In this document: positions 2,710 to 52,149 of the stretch, piece after piece
Position numbering within the stretch: the stretch's first letter is position 1
How the letters are laid out: the number at the start of each line of letters is the position of its first letter
DNA from: a virus
Lineage: Duplodnaviria > Heunggongvirae > Uroviricota > Caudoviricetes
Length of the DNA stretch: 64,000 bases
Direction: 5' to 3' (one strand)
Virus record (IMG/VR): IMGVR_UViG_3300035210_000190
Position numbers and translations under genes: made by a program
The notes under the pieces: generated by a model
The model's database searches: none
What the model saw: the letters and a program-made list of their open reading frames with translations, nothing else
Told to the model about the DNA's origin: nothing

Positions 2710-3957
2710 ATGATTATAAGTGAACGTATCAATGAATTAAGAGCAAACATTACATCATTTGTTTTGGAAAAGAACATTCCAATATTTAACACAAAACAAG
2801 GTTCTGGTCAATCTCTTGATGGTCAAAATCAGTGCTTTTTGGCCGAAATGAATACGATGGATGTGTATTTAATTGCACATGAAGATTTAAATATTGTTGA
2901 AAGATTCTTAAATCTAAATGATGAAACCATGAATAAGATAAACAAAATCAGGACATTTTGCTTTGGTTTTTATGCTAGTAGTCATCATGTGGGCAGTCAT
3001 AAACGTTTAAAAGTTAAACTCATTAATGGCAAAGGGATTGAGTTTTCAATCATTGGTGCTGGATTACCACCTTTTATCATTGATTTAAAAGATTATGAAA
3101 TCGTTGTTTCAGTTATGACGCAAAAACATTCTTCAACTGTGGTTTATTCTGGTGCTGATAATCTTGAAGATAAATTAAATTCAGCACTCGATTTAATAAT
3201 CCCTAATATGTTGAATGAATTAGGATTTTTTGATTGCACAGAAAATTCAAAAGAAGTTATTGATTTTATGAACAAGTCAACTGATGACCTGTTAGTTGAA
3301 CATTTTTCTGGATCAACTTTTAACTATATTAATAAAAATGCCTTACTTTTGAGTGCCTGCTCTGATTTGAATTTAAACTTTGATGATTTGCTTAATTACA
3401 ATAAAGATAATAATAATATTGCTCAACATCTGAAAATACCTCCTAACATGATATCTGTTTTTTCCAAAGTAATTAATAAATTAACACAATCCCCCGGAAG
3501 TGATAAAAAAATTAATCAACTCATTAGTTTGGTTTCTTTTTATAATTATTTAACATCTACTAATAGTGAATGCTCTATTACATTTAAAGCATTTTCAAAA
3601 ATTAGTTTGGTGCCTTCTTCAACTCTTGAATTTGATTATTGCTATTTTAATTTTTCAGATATTCTAAATATTACTTTGGGTCATCAATTGAAGCCTAGTT
3701 ATGAATACAATGGTATTTATGAGCACATAATTGATCAAGAAAATGAAAATGGTTATCTTTATAATTTTTTAATTGATATCGAACATAAAGACCCTAAGCC
3801 GGGTGATAAATTTATTAAATATTTCACCAATGATATTGATTATATCTATAATGTTCTTTTGATGGAGATTAAAAAATTAATTAATAAAACGATCTCTAAC
3901 ACAGAAGATGTTATCACATCAAGACAGCTTGAAGTTTTTAAAATGGCGACTGTTTAA
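2710..3957 (+). CDS. hypothetical protein, member 3 of paralog triplet
   Basis: paralogy; RBS. Confidence 0.7.
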   Translation: MIISERINELRANITSFVLEKNIPIFNTKQGSGQSLDGQNQCFLAEMNTMDVYLIAHEDLNIVERFLNLNDETMNKINKIRTFCFGFYASSHHVGSHKRLKVKLINGKGIEFSIIGAGLPPFIIDLKDYEIVVSVMTQKHSSTVVYSGADNLEDKLNSALDLIIPNMLNELGFFDCTENSKEVIDFMNKSTDDLLVEHFSGSTFNYINKNALLLSACSDLNLNFDDLLNYNKDNNNIAQHLKIPPNMISVFSKVINKLTQSPGSDKKINQLISLVSFYNYLTSTNSECSITFKAFSKISLVPSSTLEFDYCYFNFSDILNITLGHQLKPSYEYNGIYEHIIDQENENGYLYNFLIDIEHKDPKPGDKFIKYFTNDIDYIYNVLLMEIKKLINKTISNTEDVITSRQLEVFKMATV

Positions 3958-3995: not shown

Positions 3996-4361
3996 TTGTG
4001 GTTGGTTTTCATTGATGCTATAATTATGGCTCAATTCAAGAGGATTACAGAAATGGCTGCAATTATTCGTCACTTGTTTGCAAATGAAGAACTCACTCAG
4101 CGTGCGAAATCTGTTTTTGGTGACATCGTTGAAGAAGCCTACCTTTGTTTCAATAAAGAAGATGATGGTGAAAATGAGGCTTTCATCAAATACAGTGAAG
4201 GTATGACGGCTTTTTTGTCAACGCCACAATCACTTCAAGGTTGTCTTGATAGTGATCGACCTATTGCTATTAAATTTAAGAATGGACGCATTGTTGAAAT
4301 GTCGGCCCGTGATGAATTAATGATTGAACGTGTTGATCAGGAGCCATTGCTGGTCGTTTAA
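3996..4361 (+). CDS. hypothetical protein (start may be 4026)
   Basis: ORF followed by hairpin plus T9 terminator at 4383-4428. Confidence 0.55.
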   Translation: MWLVFIDAIIMAQFKRITEMAAIIRHLFANEELTQRAKSVFGDIVEEAYLCFNKEDDGENEAFIKYSEGMTAFLSTPQSLQGCLDSDRPIAIKFKNGRIVEMSARDELMIERVDQEPLLVV

Positions 4362-4429
4362 TCGTTCATACGTGACGTATGTAGGCATATTTTTGTTTAC
4401 ATACGTTTTTTTTTACGCTATACTAACCA

Positions 4430-4655
4430 TGAATTTTAGCACTTCTGCGAAAACTTATTGAGAAGTAATTTTTCGCAGTGGTGGCGGAATTCCACCTCGT
4501 TGGCCGAGGACTATTGTGAAGGGAGTTGGGGGCGGAACCCAATGAAATGTCACAAGGACAATACCCCTTGTGTAACTCTAATGAGACAAATGGCCTTGGC
4601 GACCCGCCAGTTAAACGCACCTGCGGAATCAGGTCGAGGGGTAAAAATTTTTAAC
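4430..4655 (+). ncRNA. candidate structured non-coding RNA (GC-rich, multiple hairpins, between promoter and next promoter)
   Basis: TTTACA-17-TATACT promoter at 4393-4426; GC-rich island in AT-rich genome; hairpins GGTGG-cggaatt-CCACC, CACAAGG-CCTTGTG, ACCTG-CAGGT, CTGCGAAAA-TTTTCGCAG; only overlapping spurious ORFs. Confidence 0.45.
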
Positions 4656-4720
4656 AATCGTTGTCATTGGATAATGATTGTGTCATACTAACTTACATTC
4701 AAAAAAGTGGAGTATTCAAC

Positions 4721-5035
4721 ATGACGCAGTTGACCGAAATTGTAAAATTAGAAGACAAGTCGGCATTGTCTTCATTGTTGTCGCAACCCGGTGTTGTCAT
4801 TGATATTGATCGGTCTGGTAGTATCACTTCCGATGAAATGGAATCGTTTCTCAATGAACTGTCCATGATTACTGCAGCTTCTGAAAAGAAAGATCGTTGG
4901 TTGAATTTTAGTCACAAACTCCGAAATAAAGGCAAAGAAATGACGCCTCGGGTTTGCAGTAAACGCAATGAAGCTCGTTTTAAATTGAGCAAAATTCACC
5001 CTAAATATGAATTTATGTTTACGGATGGTGAATGA
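4721..5035 (+). CDS. hypothetical protein (internal start of ORF 4661-5035)
   Basis: RBS GTGGAG before ATG 4721; promoter TTGTCA-17-CATACT at 4655-4688. Confidence 0.6.
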   Translation: MTQLTEIVKLEDKSALSSLLSQPGVVIDIDRSGSITSDEMESFLNELSMITAASEKKDRWLNFSHKLRNKGKEMTPRVCSKRNEARFKLSKIHPKYEFMFTDGE

Positions 5036-9239: not shown

Positions 9240-9313
9240 GGCTGTTTGTAGTTCAGTCGGCAGAACTCCGTCGAAAAACGGTAGTCGTGGGTTCGAATCC
9301 CATCATACAGCCT
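9240..9313 (+). tRNA. tRNA-like gene with atypical anticodon arm (4-bp stem, 6-nt loop CGAAAA); identity undetermined
   Basis: acceptor stem, D-arm GTTC/GAAC, canonical T-arm GTGGGTTCGAATCCCAT; co-transcribed with basic peptide gene; terminator at 9320-9350. Confidence 0.5.
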
Positions 9314-11669: not shown

Positions 11670-13240
11670 ATTGTAAATAACCCCGACCTGAAGGACGGAG
11701 CTTTTGTTTTTCTAGAAGCCAAAATTAGTGTGTAAACACTCTAATCTTATTTTCTTGGGGCAGTTTACTATGCCTCTACTGGCTTCTTCGAAATATTGAT
11801 CTCTCCACATTTCAAAATCACCTTTACTTTTTAACCATTTTCTCAATATATTCCCTGCTCCATTCACATCTGCATTTAGCAACTTTCCTAATGAGGATTT
11901 GAACAATCCTCTTTTGGATCTTGTTCCTAAATAGCTCTTATGTTTTTTAACTTCTTCTAAATCTAAAAAGCTTGTTTTTGAAGTATATGATTCTTCATGT
12001 TTAGCAAAAAGCAAACCTTTACTTTTAGCTTTATATTCAAGCATGTTTTTAAATTTAAAAAATGGGACAGATACAAAACTTTGATTATTAACAGACCCAA
12101 TATTGATGGATTGTTTCTGTTCTTTATTTTCACCAACTAGTATGGTGTTGAGATTGTTTTTCAAACAATACTCCACAATATAATTAGTTGATCGATGATA
12201 ATAATCGTTGATTTTGTTGGTTCTATTACGAGATAGTTTGTTTTTCTTTTTAATCATAGCACTAACATCTTGGTTATTGTTTCGACCAAGATCTATTTTA
12301 CTTGATAATTTAGCGACTTTCTTATTATACCATTGGTTTAGGGATTTTAGATAACGCCCATCAAGGAGGATGGACGAACCATTGGTGGAATTAAGGCATG
12401 CACCTAAATTATTCAAGCCAAGGTCAATGGAAAGATAACGACCGTTATCTTCCATTGCCTTATCTTCTTCAACTTCATAGACTACTTCTACTTTAAATTC
12501 TTCTCCATTACTTTTAGGCAAGATACGCACTTCGTTTATCTTTTTTATATGTTTTGGAATTGAAATTTCAAGTTTAGTAAGTAAATGAGGATATTCTTTT
12601 TTAAAGTTCTTTGAACAATTAATAACAACTCTATTAACAGTATCTTTTTCTAGTTCTGTTTTATTTTTAACAAATCGAACACTACGCCCTTGAATAACGA
12701 TATTGGAATAGGTTGGTTTATCTTTTTTTCGATTCTTCTTGTATCGTGGTAAATTAATGGTGTTGGTTTTGTTTACTGACTTTTTAGCTTTCAAACTACC
12801 AAAGAAAGCCTTCATATCTGAGTAGGCCACTCTTCTTATTTGTTGAGAACAATCATTCAGTAACAATGAAAAGTTCTCATTAAGTTTAGTGGCATGATAG
12901 AGTTCAGTATCAGAAGGCATTTTTTCTTTGTTGAAGAAAGCTTGACGTAAAGGATATAAGCAAACATTATACATTTGAGAAGCATGGACAGAGAGCATTT
13001 GAACTAATTCTTTTTCTTCTGGGCTAAACGATTTACACCACATAGAAAGTGTGCGTAAATATTTAACTCTTTTTTTAGATTTATTAGCCATAACACTCCA
13101 AAAGCCAACTAATAAAATAGTTGACTAAAATATGGTTATTAGTATACAATATAAAACTTAAAAGTCAACTATAATGAGTTGGCAAAAAAACAACCCTATT
13201 CCTCCCCTGCCTGAAGGAAGAGGTATCCAAGGGTTTAACT
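11670..13240 (-). mobile_element. tnpB-only IS200/IS605-family element (IS1341-like) with similar imperfect hairpins at both ends in direct orientation; boundaries approximate
   Basis: TnpB ORF flanked by CCCCGACCTGAAGGACGGAGC (11681-11701) and CCTCCCCTGCCTGAAGGAAGAGG (13200-13222), plus 86-bp imperfect palindrome 13104-13190. Confidence 0.6.
11712..13091 (-). CDS. tnpB: TnpB (IS605 OrfB-family RuvC-like RNA-guided nuclease/transposase accessory protein)
   Basis: RuvC-I IDLGLNNLGA, RuvC-II ESYTSKTS, RuvC-III NADVNGAGNI motifs; 459 aa. Confidence 0.85.
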   Translation of the reverse strand: MANKSKKRVKYLRTLSMWCKSFSPEEKELVQMLSVHASQMYNVCLYPLRQAFFNKEKMPSDTELYHATKLNENFSLLLNDCSQQIRRVAYSDMKAFFGSLKAKKSVNKTNTINLPRYKKNRKKDKPTYSNIVIQGRSVRFVKNKTELEKDTVNRVVINCSKNFKKEYPHLLTKLEISIPKHIKKINEVRILPKSNGEEFKVEVVYEVEEDKAMEDNGRYLSIDLGLNNLGACLNSTNGSSILLDGRYLKSLNQWYNKKVAKLSSKIDLGRNNNQDVSAMIKKKNKLSRNRTNKINDYYHRSTNYIVEYCLKNNLNTILVGENKEQKQSINIGSVNNQSFVSVPFFKFKNMLEYKAKSKGLLFAKHEESYTSKTSFLDLEEVKKHKSYLGTRSKRGLFKSSLGKLLNADVNGAGNILRKWLKSKGDFEMWRDQYFEEASRGIVNCPKKIRLECLHTNFGF

Positions 13241-33832: not shown

Positions 33833-34954
33833 ATGTCCAGCATCTTCCCCCGTATTGAAACCCTTGATGATATGATTCCTCATATCAAAGACCGTGCCTA
33901 TATTTCTCTTAACAAACAGGATAACGGTGCCGACATCGTTTGCTACAACATCAGCAACGGTGACTCTTTCAACACTCCGGTTGAAAAGGAAGCTCGCGGT
34001 ATTACCTTTGACGACAACGGTAAAATACTGTCGCGTCCATTGCACAAATTCTTCAACTTGGCAGAGCGTGCAGAAGTCCAGCCAGCCGTTTTGGATTGGA
34101 ACACTATGGTTGCCGGGTTTGATAAAATGGATGGCTCCATGATTACCACAGGGCTGTTCAAAGGCGAATTCTTTGCTAAGTCCAAGAAGTCTTTCAAATC
34201 GGATGTGGCTGTTTCGGCAGAAGGCTTTGTGTCTCGTAACCAGAAATACTACGAGTTCACCAAATATTGCTCTCAGGCCCAACTGACGCCAATTTTTGAA
34301 TTCACTTCGCCAAAGCATCGTATCGTTTTGCGTTATGACGAAGACAACATGACATTGCTTCATGTTCGTCACAACATCACAGGCGATTACTTAATGCCTG
34401 CTGAAAAAGACCAACTGGCGTTGTTGTTTGATATTCCTGTTAACAAGCCACTGTTTGGTGAAGAATTTGATTTGGCTTCCCTGTTGAAGTCGCTGAACAC
34501 GGTTGAAGGGATTGAAGGCTATGTTATTCAATTCGTTAACGGTAACATGATCAAAATCAAAACCAAATGGTATATGAATCTCCATCATGCGGTTAGCTTT
34601 GTTCGTGAACGTGATATTGCTCGTTTGGTGGTCGAAGAAAAACTTGATGATTACATTGCTTATTTGTCGCTAAACTCGCCAACGGCTGATTTGAGTGAAA
34701 TTTATCGTATCAATGACGCTATCAAAGCTTCGATTGAAGCGTTGTCGAAAGAGGTTGATGATATTGCTGCTGCATTCCAAGGTGTTGACGTGAAAACTGC
34801 AGCAATCCAACTCAAAGGCCACAAACACTTTGGTTTTGTTATGGGGGCAATTCGTGGTCACAAAAACGACTACCTGTATCACTACTCTAAAAACCATCTG
34901 GTGGATTGGTCGTTGGACCAAATTGAGCTTGGCGACTTGTCCGCTCCCGTTTAA
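33833..34954 (+). CDS. RNA ligase, Rnl1 family (divergent paralog A)
   Basis: KFFNL, nucleotidyl-lysine motif DKMDGSM, EGYVIQFVNGNMIKIKTKWYMNLH matching T4 Rnl1 motifs. Confidence 0.8.
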   Translation: MSSIFPRIETLDDMIPHIKDRAYISLNKQDNGADIVCYNISNGDSFNTPVEKEARGITFDDNGKILSRPLHKFFNLAERAEVQPAVLDWNTMVAGFDKMDGSMITTGLFKGEFFAKSKKSFKSDVAVSAEGFVSRNQKYYEFTKYCSQAQLTPIFEFTSPKHRIVLRYDEDNMTLLHVRHNITGDYLMPAEKDQLALLFDIPVNKPLFGEEFDLASLLKSLNTVEGIEGYVIQFVNGNMIKIKTKWYMNLHHAVSFVRERDIARLVVEEKLDDYIAYLSLNSPTADLSEIYRINDAIKASIEALSKEVDDIAAAFQGVDVKTAAIQLKGHKHFGFVMGAIRGHKNDYLYHYSKNHLVDWSLDQIELGDLSAPV

Positions 34955-35912: not shown

Positions 35913-37046
35913 ATGGAGATTCACATGACTTATCAACAAGAACTGTATGCCCAACTGATGAACCTGTTGGTTACTAATCCGGGGTCTTTTAAATACCGTG
36001 ATGAAATCTCGGCGGTAGACGGTGGGACTTACCGTGTCTTCAACTATGACATTCCAAAGCACTCCGAATTCAAACTTCCGGGTGCCAAGGATTGCCGTGG
36101 AGTCATGTTCTACATGGGCGGTTCTGAGCCAATGCTGGTGGCATTGCCAATGCAGAAATTCTTTTCCTTGGGCGAAACCCCTGAAACGCAAAAGGTGAAG
36201 CCAGAAGAAGCCGACCACGCTTATCTGAAACCCGATGGCTCGTTGCTCACCAGCTATATTTCTCCGATCAATAATACTCTTTACTACAAGAGTAAAAAGA
36301 AGCCTACGTTTGCTGATTACGGCCTTGTTGAACAGTCTATCAGTCCAGAATTGCACGCAGACGTTGAACGGCTGACCCGCACAGGTGTTTCGGTTGACTT
36401 GGAACTGACCACGCCGAAAAACCGTGTTTTCATCGAATACACTACCTACGAAGTTCATGTGTTGAAAGCCCGCGACATGAACACAGGGGCTTATGTGGAC
36501 ATTCGTTCGGCAGAATTTGCCGCAGAATATCCGGTTATTGCGGCCCATTTGGTGAAACGTATCCCTATCAATGAACTCAACGTTAATGACCCTGAAATTG
36601 AGGGTTATGTGGTTGAATTTGGCCCTGACATGTATAAGGTCAAGACCATTCCTTACCTGAAAATGTCGGCAGTGGTTAACATTCAGGATCGTTCGAAGGA
36701 ACGTCAGGTTATTTATGAAGCAACTCTTCATGAAATTCTGGATGAAATTCGTTCGCTGTATCATTACCGGACACACAGCGACAACTTCCCACTGGCTGAA
36801 ATTCTGGCTCGCTTGGATGAAGTCGAAGACTACGCCCGTAAAAGCTACCATTACCTTGTTCGCACGGTTGATAGCTTCCACGATGAGCATAAAGGTTTGG
36901 AACGTGGCGATTACGCTCGTAAAGCCAAAGAAGTGGCTCCATTGCTTCTGTCGGTGTTGATGAGCAAGTTTTCGGGTGACGAGATTGATTACAAACAAGC
37001 CGCTATCATGGTGTTTGCTCGTAAACAAGTGCCTATCCCCGAGTAA
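35913..37046 (+). CDS. rnlA: RNA ligase 1 (T4 Rnl1-like; likely start 35925)
   Basis: TYRVFNY, DCRGVMFYM, QKFFSL, LKPDGSLL (lysine motif I), EGYVVEF...YKVKT match T4 Rnl1. Confidence 0.85.
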   Translation: MEIHMTYQQELYAQLMNLLVTNPGSFKYRDEISAVDGGTYRVFNYDIPKHSEFKLPGAKDCRGVMFYMGGSEPMLVALPMQKFFSLGETPETQKVKPEEADHAYLKPDGSLLTSYISPINNTLYYKSKKKPTFADYGLVEQSISPELHADVERLTRTGVSVDLELTTPKNRVFIEYTTYEVHVLKARDMNTGAYVDIRSAEFAAEYPVIAAHLVKRIPINELNVNDPEIEGYVVEFGPDMYKVKTIPYLKMSAVVNIQDRSKERQVIYEATLHEILDEIRSLYHYRTHSDNFPLAEILARLDEVEDYARKSYHYLVRTVDSFHDEHKGLERGDYARKAKEVAPLLLSVLMSKFSGDEIDYKQAAIMVFARKQVPIPE

Positions 37047-51938: not shown

Positions 51939-52010
51939 GGGCCGGTGGTGTTTAACGGGAACAAGTGTCCTTAACCGGATGAGTTCTGGGTTCGAGTCCC
52001 AGTCGGTCCT
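51939..52010 (+). tRNA. tRNA-like gene, atypical anticodon arm (5-bp stem with two G-U pairs, 6-nt loop UUAACC); monocistronic with own promoter and terminator
   Basis: acceptor stem GGGCCGG/TCGGTCC, D-arm TGTT/AACA, canonical T-arm CTGGGTTCGAGTCCCAG; terminator 52029-52053. Confidence 0.5.
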
Positions 52011-52149
52011 CCTAATTTAAAATACAGATAAACCGCCTTCTTGGCGGTTTTTTGTTTTAACACTTTTGAATAATAATCATTTTTCACTACCAGTATTATA
52101 GACAACAAAAAGCCCGCTTCTGCGGGCCTTTTATATTACTGTTGGAAAA

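Follow-up and report, generated by a model that had tools for sequence, protein, structure and literature searches.

The stretch of DNA considered here (the window) comprises 64,000 nucleotides (nt) of a Caudoviricetes record in IMG/VR, IMGVR_UViG_3300035210_000190. Between a small open reading frame (ORF) at 4026–4361 (+) and another starting at 4721 lies a GC-rich gap, which an initial annotation had singled out as a structured transcript of about 230 nt resembling a stable RNA. This gap almost certainly encodes a functional structured RNA of a new family. The family core is found at 4477–4644 on the plus strand (168 nt), a segment that spans the full length of a covariance model (R1) built from 18 sequences; in the 64-kb window R1 finds this single copy, at 167.7 bits and E = 1e-49. 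The compositional contrast that first drew attention to the region holds, with a GC fraction of 0.536 in the core and 0.373 in the whole window (99.8th percentile among all 168-nt windows), while the conserved unit itself is 168 nt, or about 215 nt counted from a predicted start near 4431. Just three other places reach the same GC level, so the core is an outlier but not unique. A GC-rich stretch at 43.9–44.2 kb, considered as a second RNA, is an ordinary small gene instead. Folding of the plus strand gives -76.3 kcal/mol (z = -2.93, with 3 of 200 shuffled sequences equally good), and that of the minus strand a z of -1.73.

A BLASTN query of 1,201 nt, consisting of the gap and its flanking genes, matched 15 phage records, only over window positions 4489–4651, at 74–82% identity and always in unannotated DNA. 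Among the carriers, two P. putida phages measure about 74 kb and the Klebsiella jumbo phages about 300 kb; further cultured carriers, all of them jumbo phages, are Pseudomonas phage D6, Salmonella phage SA002, and Shewanella phage SXP01. None of the protein genes flanking the window copy is common to the matched phages, and with flanking genes thus unrelated the RNA is autonomous of its neighbors. IMG/VR was scanned with two independent exact patterns, one running from GTAACTCT to GAGACAAA and one covering the first T-arm and the hairpin that follows it. R1 matches 81 loci from these scans, with scores from 22 to 182 bits; alternative anchor patterns, run as a check, recover just 4–14 of these 81 known members. 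More than 160 distinct members are recognized by R1 in viral and metagenome contigs. The metagenome contigs hold at least 120 loci, and among the matches listed 80 of 80 fit R1. By comparison, one genome from each of 185,579 bacterial and archaeal species yielded 49 pattern loci, only 11 of which fit R1, and BLAST against E. coli complete genomes and PLSDB plasmids gave no match. On the strength of these collection scans the family is essentially phage-restricted. It is abundant in viromes and spans phages of very different size and host. Individual loci are referred to below by L numbers where they need to be told apart.

The Rfam scan suggested in the initial annotation gave no match to any family at the element: Rfam 15 at gathering thresholds returns only three tRNAs, all elsewhere in the window, a permissive scan of 4200–4900 at E ≤ 10 only noise, and a scan of the relatives no family match. 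ARAGORN makes no call at the element either. The RNA is therefore not a described family. Phage non-coding RNAs are poorly charted, and no description of this one was found in the literature, where the unnamed candidates of an IMG/VR structured-RNA survey (PMC10690425) were not compared; an unnamed prior prediction of the family in that survey is possible.

The case for a structured RNA rests mainly on covariation. Of the 37 pairs that RNAalifold predicted from the 18 sequences, 30 show compensatory changes. Two pseudoknots were added from an all-against-all covariation screen and inspection of the alignment; the full model comprises 11 helices with 45 base pairs. For its test, 33 members were aligned with MAFFT, without fitting to any structure. 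Standard pairs occupy 91.4% of cells in this alignment against 67.5% when shuffled, and none of 500 shuffles scored as high. Double-change cells number 371, compared with 106.8 in shuffles, and 38 of the 45 pairs show change on both sides, compared with 28.3. When partners are slid by 1–3 columns, just 39–44% of cells remain paired. A conserved ORF in related phages, or a lack of structural covariation, had been named in advance as findings that would count against a stable structured non-coding RNA; the relatives have no conserved ORF and covary very strongly, which supports that assignment. The parts of the core are as follows.

4480–4496 (+): T-arm 1, a 5-bp stem GGTGG/CCACC with a 7-nt loop (helix 1, 94.5% paired, 4 of 5 pairs double-changed); loop CGGAAUU in the window, family consensus UUCGAUU
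4497–4507 (+): closed acceptor-like stem, pairs 4497-4507 and 4498-4506 (helices 2 and 3); its loop bases 4502–4505 (GGCC) are the 5' strand of pseudoknot 1
4510–4517 (+): mini D-arm-like hairpin with a 2-bp stem and 4-nt loop (helix 4, 97% paired); loop UAUU in the window, consensus UGGU
4518–4525 (+): single-stranded joiner GAAGGGAG, nearly invariant in the alignments
4525–4543 (+): T-arm 2, a 6-bp stem with a conserved closing G-U and a 7-nt loop (helix 5, 97.5% paired, 5 of 6 pairs double-changed); loop GGCGGAA in the window, consensus UUCGAUU
4551–4572 (+): hairpin H5, CACAAGG/CCTTGTG at 4551–4557/4566–4572 (helix 7, 7 of 7 pairs double-changed); loop CAAUAC in the window, consensus CAAUAA or UAAUAG
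4576–4585 (+): hairpin H6, CUC-UAAU-GAG (helix 8, 98% paired)
4592–4595 (+): 3' strand of pseudoknot 1, GGCC, partner of 4502–4505 (helix 3, 97% paired, 4 of 4 pairs double-changed)
4596–4610 (+): hairpin H8, TTGGCG-ACC-CGCCAG (helices 9 and 10); its loop bases 4602–4605 (ACCC) are the 5' strand of pseudoknot 2
4619–4634 (+): hairpin H9, ACCTG/CAGGT at 4619–4623/4630–4634, with a conserved loop CGGAAU (helix 11, 5 of 5 pairs double-changed)
4639–4642 (+): 3' strand of pseudoknot 2, GGGU, partner of 4602–4605 (helix 10)

All four hairpins listed in the initial annotation are present. Three of them (4480–4484/4492–4496, 4551–4557/4566–4572, and 4619–4623/4630–4634) are conserved, covarying helices of the family, while the first (4445–4453/4470–4478) is specific to the window. 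H6 is a second D-loop-like hairpin, with consensus loop UGGU, within the conserved GUAACUCU...GAGACAAAU block, and compensating changes in it are visible at L063, L068, and L084. In pseudoknot 1, pair 26-119 takes five pair types and is 99% paired in 74 sequences. Pseudoknot 2 shows whole-helix swaps, to GCUA/UAGC (L008, L010), ACAC/GUGU (L037), GCUC/GAGC (L045, L072), and CUAG/CUAG (L047). Very distant phages have in common some 165 nt with both pseudoknots, including about 40 unpaired bases that hardly vary.

The family also has short variants, which lack H5. Those at L094, L082, L050, L095, L096, L110, and L113 carry another conserved 3' hairpin, UGACA(G/C)C-NNGG-AAAGA-CCNN, in place of the domain formed by H8, pseudoknot 2, and H9. 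The common 5' core with its two T-arms can therefore be followed by at least two alternative 3' domains.

The resemblance to tRNA suspected in the initial annotation proved real and specific, consisting of two canonical T-arms (in the family) and a covarying pair between a D-loop and a T-loop. Module 1 runs from a variable-like AAGG/AGUG through the T-arm and the closed acceptor-like stem to the D-like hairpin, and is a circularly permuted tRNA-like domain with the D-like loop docking on the T-loop as a tRNA-type elbow. Position 3 of the D-like loop (4514) pairs with position 3 of T-loop 1 (4487), as G19 does with C56 in tRNA. This pair is standard in 33 of 33 members (27 G-C, three U-A, and one each of A-U, C-G, and U-G), all six departures from G-C being compensated, whereas controls that set each D-like loop against the T-loop of the other module give mismatches. 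A covarying loop-loop pair of this kind marks the G19-C56 elbow contact of tRNA. Module 2 repeats the order, with T-arm 2, H5, and the D-like H6. The family is under strong structural selection, including on a tRNA-type tertiary contact, and has no entry in Rfam.

The 5-bp T-stems, UUCGAUU loops, GG-containing D-like loop, and covarying G19-C56-type pair are all shared with tRNA, but the anticodon arm, open acceptor end, and CCA are missing, and ARAGORN and the Rfam tRNA model (RF00005), which call other tRNAs in the window, call none at 4380–4660. Transfer-messenger RNA (tmRNA), including permuted two-piece forms (RF04321 and others), is encoded by some phages and has a T-arm near the 5' end of its gene followed by acceptor-like pairing, a UCUGG-type D-loop analog, and pseudoknots. 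Here, by contrast, the acceptor is closed by a 5-nt loop, and there is no CCA, G-U identity pair, or tag frame; ARAGORN makes no tmRNA call, and neither the Rfam tmRNA nor the tmRNA_permuted model matches at E ≤ 10. The UAA or UAG in the H5 loop was considered as the end of a tmRNA-like tag and rejected, being not conserved (UAC in the window). The tmRNA_permuted model has a sub-threshold match of 32.5 bits elsewhere, inside a Felixounavirus tRNA array (L280 7817–8000). Bacteriophage T4 makes two stable RNAs from its tRNA cluster, RNAC and RNAD, whose function is still unknown after 50 years (PMC3014915, PMC9697503). These (also called species 1 and 2) are small phage RNAs encoded in a tRNA cluster, and RNAC ends in a canonical T-arm. 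RNAC differs in not being permuted, with its T-arm at the 3' end, and the window copy lies outside a tRNA cluster. The T4 RNAs are not homologous to the family: R1 run on the T4 tRNA region with filters off gives bare T-arm matches only, at 7 bits or less.

The sequence around the core contains several candidate signals.

4374–4414 (+): terminator-like hairpin ACGTATGTA / TACATACGT followed by a T9 run (terminator scan and sequence)
4396–4424 (+): sigma-70-like promoter TTTACA-17-TATACT (consensus scan, 10 of 12 positions matched)
4445–4478 (+): 5' hairpin with a 9-bp stem, CTGCGAAAA (4445–4453) / TTTTCGCAG (4470–4478), and an inner TTATT/AGTAA stem (folding)
4661–4689 (+): second promoter-like site, ahead of the ORF starting at 4721 (consensus scan)

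Both promoters and the palindrome with its T9 run had been pointed out in the initial annotation and were recovered by the scans. From the first promoter, transcription is predicted to start near 4431, and the transcript likely extends from there to about 4650; promoter-like sites occur in the region at chance level (4 found, 2.9 ± 1.7 expected). The palindrome forms a 14-pair stem (4374–4407) followed by TTTTTTT, beginning 13 nt past the stop codon of the ORF at 4026–4361. A stem-loop with a U-run directly after it and downstream of a stop codon is what is expected of an intrinsic terminator, and the site is best read as the terminator of that preceding gene. The site and the -35 hexamer of the promoter assigned to the RNA overlap. 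After the element, the scan found no terminator in the window before the next gene at 4721. The 5' hairpin abuts T-arm 1 and is stable in the window copy (minimum free energy -14.0, z = -3.67), but its sequence is not kept in the relatives, where its place is taken by a different hairpin or a tRNA. The possibility that a hairpin 5' of the core is conserved throughout the family was considered and discarded, the family mean z being just -0.77. Of the two small ORFs beside the element, neither belongs to a convincing family; the downstream one (104 amino acids, aa) has a VWA-like match below threshold.

The genomic context was compared for 138 distinct elements. A tRNA gene on the same strand ends within 10 nt upstream of 28 of 134 members, typically at a spacing of 2–4 nt and often as ...CCA-G-AAGG. 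Eight kinds of tRNA occur in this upstream position (Lys, Ile, Met, Thr, Phe, Leu, Asp, and Ala). Downstream, a tRNA starts within 15 nt in 6 of 130 members, and a tRNA lies within 500 nt of 42 of the 138. The family is linked non-randomly to tRNA genes. In the jumbo phages of Klebsiella and Pseudomonas the RNA is located in tRNA clusters, as are about 30% of members overall; the remaining 70% or so lie between small co-oriented ORFs. For the window copy, the nearest tRNA-like gene is 4.6 kb away. Neighboring genes are ordinary ones of replication and nucleotide metabolism. BLASTP clustering of neighbor ORFs gave clusters of at most eight loci and no recurrent partner; in a Pfam census of 119 immediately flanking ORFs no family occurred more than three times, and Pfam scans of the top clusters likewise gave no recurrent partner.

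In Klebsiella jumbo phages, the element is found in an ORF-free gap of about 700 nt directly 3' of the tRNA array. It accounts for 168 nt of this gap; the rest (L002 2300–2457 and 2626–3014, with the equivalent in L003) is conserved between Centimanus and FBKp24 and, with its GC-rich hairpins and a T-arm-like GCCGTTCGATTCGGT, may encode additional RNAs. The window itself contains two odd tRNA-like genes, at 9242–9312 and 51939–52012 (+), with anticodons left undetermined by ARAGORN. The first has an Rfam tRNA match of 44 bits and a defective anticodon stem, and both may be further non-canonical tRNA-like RNAs.

Taken together, the sequence comparisons make a gene for a structured, presumably stable non-coding RNA the best reading of 4477–4644 (+). 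That the RNA acts in trans, as a mimic of tRNA shape, is a proposal we regard as about evenly balanced. In the window it would be made from its own sigma-70-type promoter; in relatives within tRNA arrays it would be co-transcribed with the tRNAs and released by 3'-end processing of the tRNA ending 2–4 nt upstream and, on the other side, by RNase P cleavage at a tRNA starting 5–8 nt downstream. The two pseudoknots, one joining the acceptor-like loop to the strand after module 2 and the other the H8 loop to the 3' tail, lock the fold. The released, nuclease-resistant mimic could then bind a protein that recognizes the tRNA elbow or T-arm and sequester, recruit, or scaffold it. Such a partner might be a factor of RNA surveillance or repair, or else a tRNA-directed enzyme of the host. 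Possible roles for tRNA look-alikes of phages include anti-defense, tRNA maturation, and RNA repair or surveillance, and the cultured carriers (Klebsiella FBKp24 and Centimanus, Pseudomonas D6, and P. putida Ebordelon) make the question testable.

A more specific version is put forward only tentatively and is rather unlikely as it stands: a tandem "double-elbow" tRNA mimic, which would found a new class of non-coding RNAs in viruses and be dedicated to the conflict over tRNAs, independent of Ro60. The RNA might be a decoy or inhibitor of a host enzyme that recognizes tRNA shape (a defense nuclease, or a processing or modification enzyme), or it might be a new ribozyme that matures the 3' ends of phage tRNAs; our estimate covers the two jointly.

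Several observations weigh against a trans-acting mimic. Both "stable" and "trans-acting" are inferred properties rather than observed ones. The tertiary pair of module 2 is putative (29 G-C, one U-G, two A-C, and one G-A). The window copy is a variant that keeps all helices but has neither the canonical UUCGAUU nor the UGGU loops in either module: its T-loops are of CGGAA type and the UGGU loops are replaced by UAUU or UAAU. Its elbow contacts, if kept, would be non-canonical (U-G and A-G in module 1). About 70% of members, the window copy included, are not beside a tRNA, and the neighbor censuses revealed no conserved protein partner encoded nearby. Finally, many members are set tightly between co-oriented ORFs, with the downstream ORF 6–25 nt away, an arrangement that also fits a cis-acting role.

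Such a role, with the element setting the levels of neighboring mRNAs and tRNAs, is the strongest of the alternatives, though still improbable. Within polycistronic phage transcripts, a very stable tRNA-like fold could serve RNase P or RNase E as a processing "punctuation" site, stop exonucleases that degrade from the 3' end, or work as a put-like antitermination RNA, all of which share this one estimate. The element is always co-oriented with its neighbors and close to them, ORFs often ending 5–25 nt upstream as well as starting at the downstream distances just given; no terminator separates the window copy from the gene at 4721; and diverse flanking genes are what would be expected of a generic processing or stability module. 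Yet a simple hairpin or a single tRNA-like fold would suffice for this purpose, whereas what is conserved is about 165 nt with two pseudoknots. At L008, L013, and L023, moreover, the element sits between two tRNAs with no mRNA to protect, and in the window it has a promoter of its own and the downstream gene another.

A relationship to the Y RNAs has to be considered next because of the permuted order. YrlA RNAs have the same succession of T-arm, closed acceptor, and D-arm in a tRNA-like fold, and are also found in some phages, at times co-transcribed with tRNAs (PMC4201824; bioRxiv 10.1101/312249). The likeness covers the whole series of variable region, T-arm, closed acceptor stem, and D-arm, and the elbow of T-loop and D-loop; in the phage RNA, helices 1, 2, and 4 covary and the tertiary pair is standard in all 33 aligned members, as a YrlA-type permuted domain would have it. 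Beyond this the two diverge. The acceptor-like stem of the phage RNA is only 2–3 bp, extended by a pseudoknot, and its D-arm is a mini-hairpin of 2 bp and 4 nt in place of the GCUC...GAGC of YrlA. There is no 5'/3' Ro-binding stem, and a second tRNA-like module and a pseudoknotted 3' domain are added. There is no sequence or covariance-model similarity in either direction: the YrlA model (RF02553) matches neither window positions 4200–4900 at E ≤ 10 nor the family members next to Ro-like genes, although it detects the YrlA of mycobacteriophage Bxz1, upstream of the Ro60 gene gp220, at 32.5 bits and E = 3e-4, and R1 gives that same YrlA 4.7 bits, which is no detection. The Ro-binding motif GNCGAAN0-1G is absent from window positions 4417–4476, and GNCGAA occurs upstream of 9 of 129 members, against 2 of 129 in a downstream control. 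With the YrlA architecture but no model match and, in the window, neither the motif nor a Ro-like gene, the phage RNA is not a member of YrlA; it extends the permuted-tRNA architecture to a form that is tandem, locked by pseudoknots, and independent of Ro60.

The Ro connection stems from a small number of loci. In the L064/L069 group, the Pfam census identified a 523-aa protein with DUF2828/DUF7788, encoded about 400 nt downstream of the RNA. Proteins of this type fall into phrog_850 ("RNA-binding protein") together with a true Ro60 ortholog, Bxz1 gp220. When Bxz1 gp220 and DUF2828 sequences were used as tblastn queries, a Ro-like gene was found near the RNA at 7 of 176 loci, representing three independent lineages: about 400 nt downstream at L064, L069, L171, L219, and L215, 2.4 kb downstream at L049, and 6.7 kb upstream at L223. 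For the window copy, tblastn finds no Ro-like gene within about 4 kb or anywhere in the 64 kb. At L064 and L069, a second T-arm-containing sequence, GCGAGGTTCGATTCCTCAAGG, lies directly 3' of the R1 match and before the Ro-like gene, recalling the multiple T-arm RNAs upstream of rsr in Deinococcus and Mycobacterium. DUF2828/DUF7788 proteins (for example L069 1524–3092 (-), L280 4959–6374, and L281 5001–6443) occur in 695 phage records, and in Felixounavirus VpaE1 and Bacillus phage Thrax4 they are encoded immediately beside the tRNA array. They have the look of a Ro-like family associated with the tRNA clusters of phages. The Ro-like loci of VpaE1, Thrax4, and Vibrio phage nt-1 have no member of the RNA family, so the link between RNA and Ro-like gene is not general, and their co-location may reflect a shared tRNA-array neighborhood rather than a dedicated partnership.

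On this basis we consider it quite unlikely that the RNA is a divergent Y RNA, in which a tRNA-like module binds an effector and works with a Ro60-type ring protein of phage or host, serving RNA quality control or repair in the manner of YrlA with its partners Rsr, PNPase, and RtcB. The permuted order of YrlA (PMC4201824) would be explained, as would a DUF2828/DUF7788 gene on the same strand in three independent lineages and its sharing of phrog_850 with a protein that has TROVE and vWA_Ro60 domains. The window phage, too, has two T4 Rnl1-like RNA ligases, and linkage to RNA ligases is frequent at YrlA loci (bioRxiv 10.1101/312249). Against this stand the reciprocal failure of the models despite the Bxz1 control, the lack of a Ro-like gene in the window and at about 170 of 176 loci, the scarcity of GNCGAA and its absence in the window, and the three phages with a Ro-like gene beside tRNA arrays and no family member there. 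The ligase genes (33833–34954 and 35913–37046, both +) are about 1 kb apart, with a best phage relative in Ralstonia jumbo phage RsoM2USA (41% identity), and suggest a capacity for tRNA repair in a genome carrying a tRNA-like RNA.

Less probable again, and by our analysis very unlikely, is a new self-cleaving or processing ribozyme that would cut at its own 5' edge and free the 3' end of an upstream tRNA. It would suit the 28 of 134 members that follow a tRNA by 2–4 nt, often directly after the encoded CCA and one base, since a tight fold there would block exonucleolytic trimming of the tRNA 3' end and an endonucleolytic cut would be needed. A double-pseudoknotted fold with many invariant unpaired bases would suit it as well, and there is a precedent in the theta (minimal HDV-like) ribozymes of gut phages, structured RNAs located just after tRNAs (PMC10879173). 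These are likewise pseudoknotted and directly downstream of tRNA genes, where they could define the tRNA 3' end; they are about 60 nt, compared with about 165 nt here, and the phage RNA, whose modeled fold is not HDV-like, matches no Rfam ribozyme model. The 5' end of the element is a T-arm and not a P1-type helix around a cleavage site, and about 70% of members, again with the window copy among them, have no upstream tRNA to release.

It is barely credible that the element is a functionless remnant, either of degenerate tandem tRNA genes or of an attP-like tRNA 3' fragment left by integration. In favor of it are the two canonical T-arms, the association of the family with tRNA arrays, and the order of T-arm, acceptor 3' strand, acceptor 5' strand, and D-arm, which is that of the junction between tandem tRNAs. 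The YrlA model does weakly match one such junction of two adjacent tRNA genes (L049 662–737), in line with an origin of permuted tRNA-like domains at the junctions of tandem tRNAs. However, compensatory changes maintain 11 helices, two pseudoknots, and a tertiary pair at about 66% identity, and hence the RNA fold is under purifying selection. Integrases are not recurrent among the neighboring genes checked, and the spread of identities excludes recent copies of one mobile sequence.

The probability of a small protein-coding gene is practically nil: candidate ORFs do exist (4458–4691, +, 77 aa with a TTG start; 4423–4620, -, 65 aa) and a 39-aa "hypothetical protein" has been placed over the homologous element in Salmonella phage vB_SalM_SA002 (L157 2048–2167, ACSA002_2056), but the ORFs over the region only overlap one another, as the initial annotation had noted, and are unconvincing, none is conserved, the three plus-strand frames are open through the core in 2, 0, and 2 of 33 relatives, in eight or more members none of the six frames stays free of stops for more than 38 codons, and substitutions in the 33-member alignment track base pairing rather than codon patterns. 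The SA002 coding sequence is most likely a spurious gene call, an annotation that the RNA family corrects.

Two other features of the window lie outside the RNA and its immediate flanks. Upstream of it are three ORFs of about 415 aa in a row (164–1405, 1411–2667, and 2710–3957, all +), without Pfam matches. The first and third are paralogs (27% identity, E = 4e-40), forming a tandem gene family. Further downstream, a 459-aa ORF at 11712–13091 (-) has OrfB_IS605 and Cas12f1-like TNB domains. From its domain content it is presumably a TnpB-type RNA-guided nuclease or insertion sequence (IS) element, and it looks to be located inside a jumbo-phage genome.

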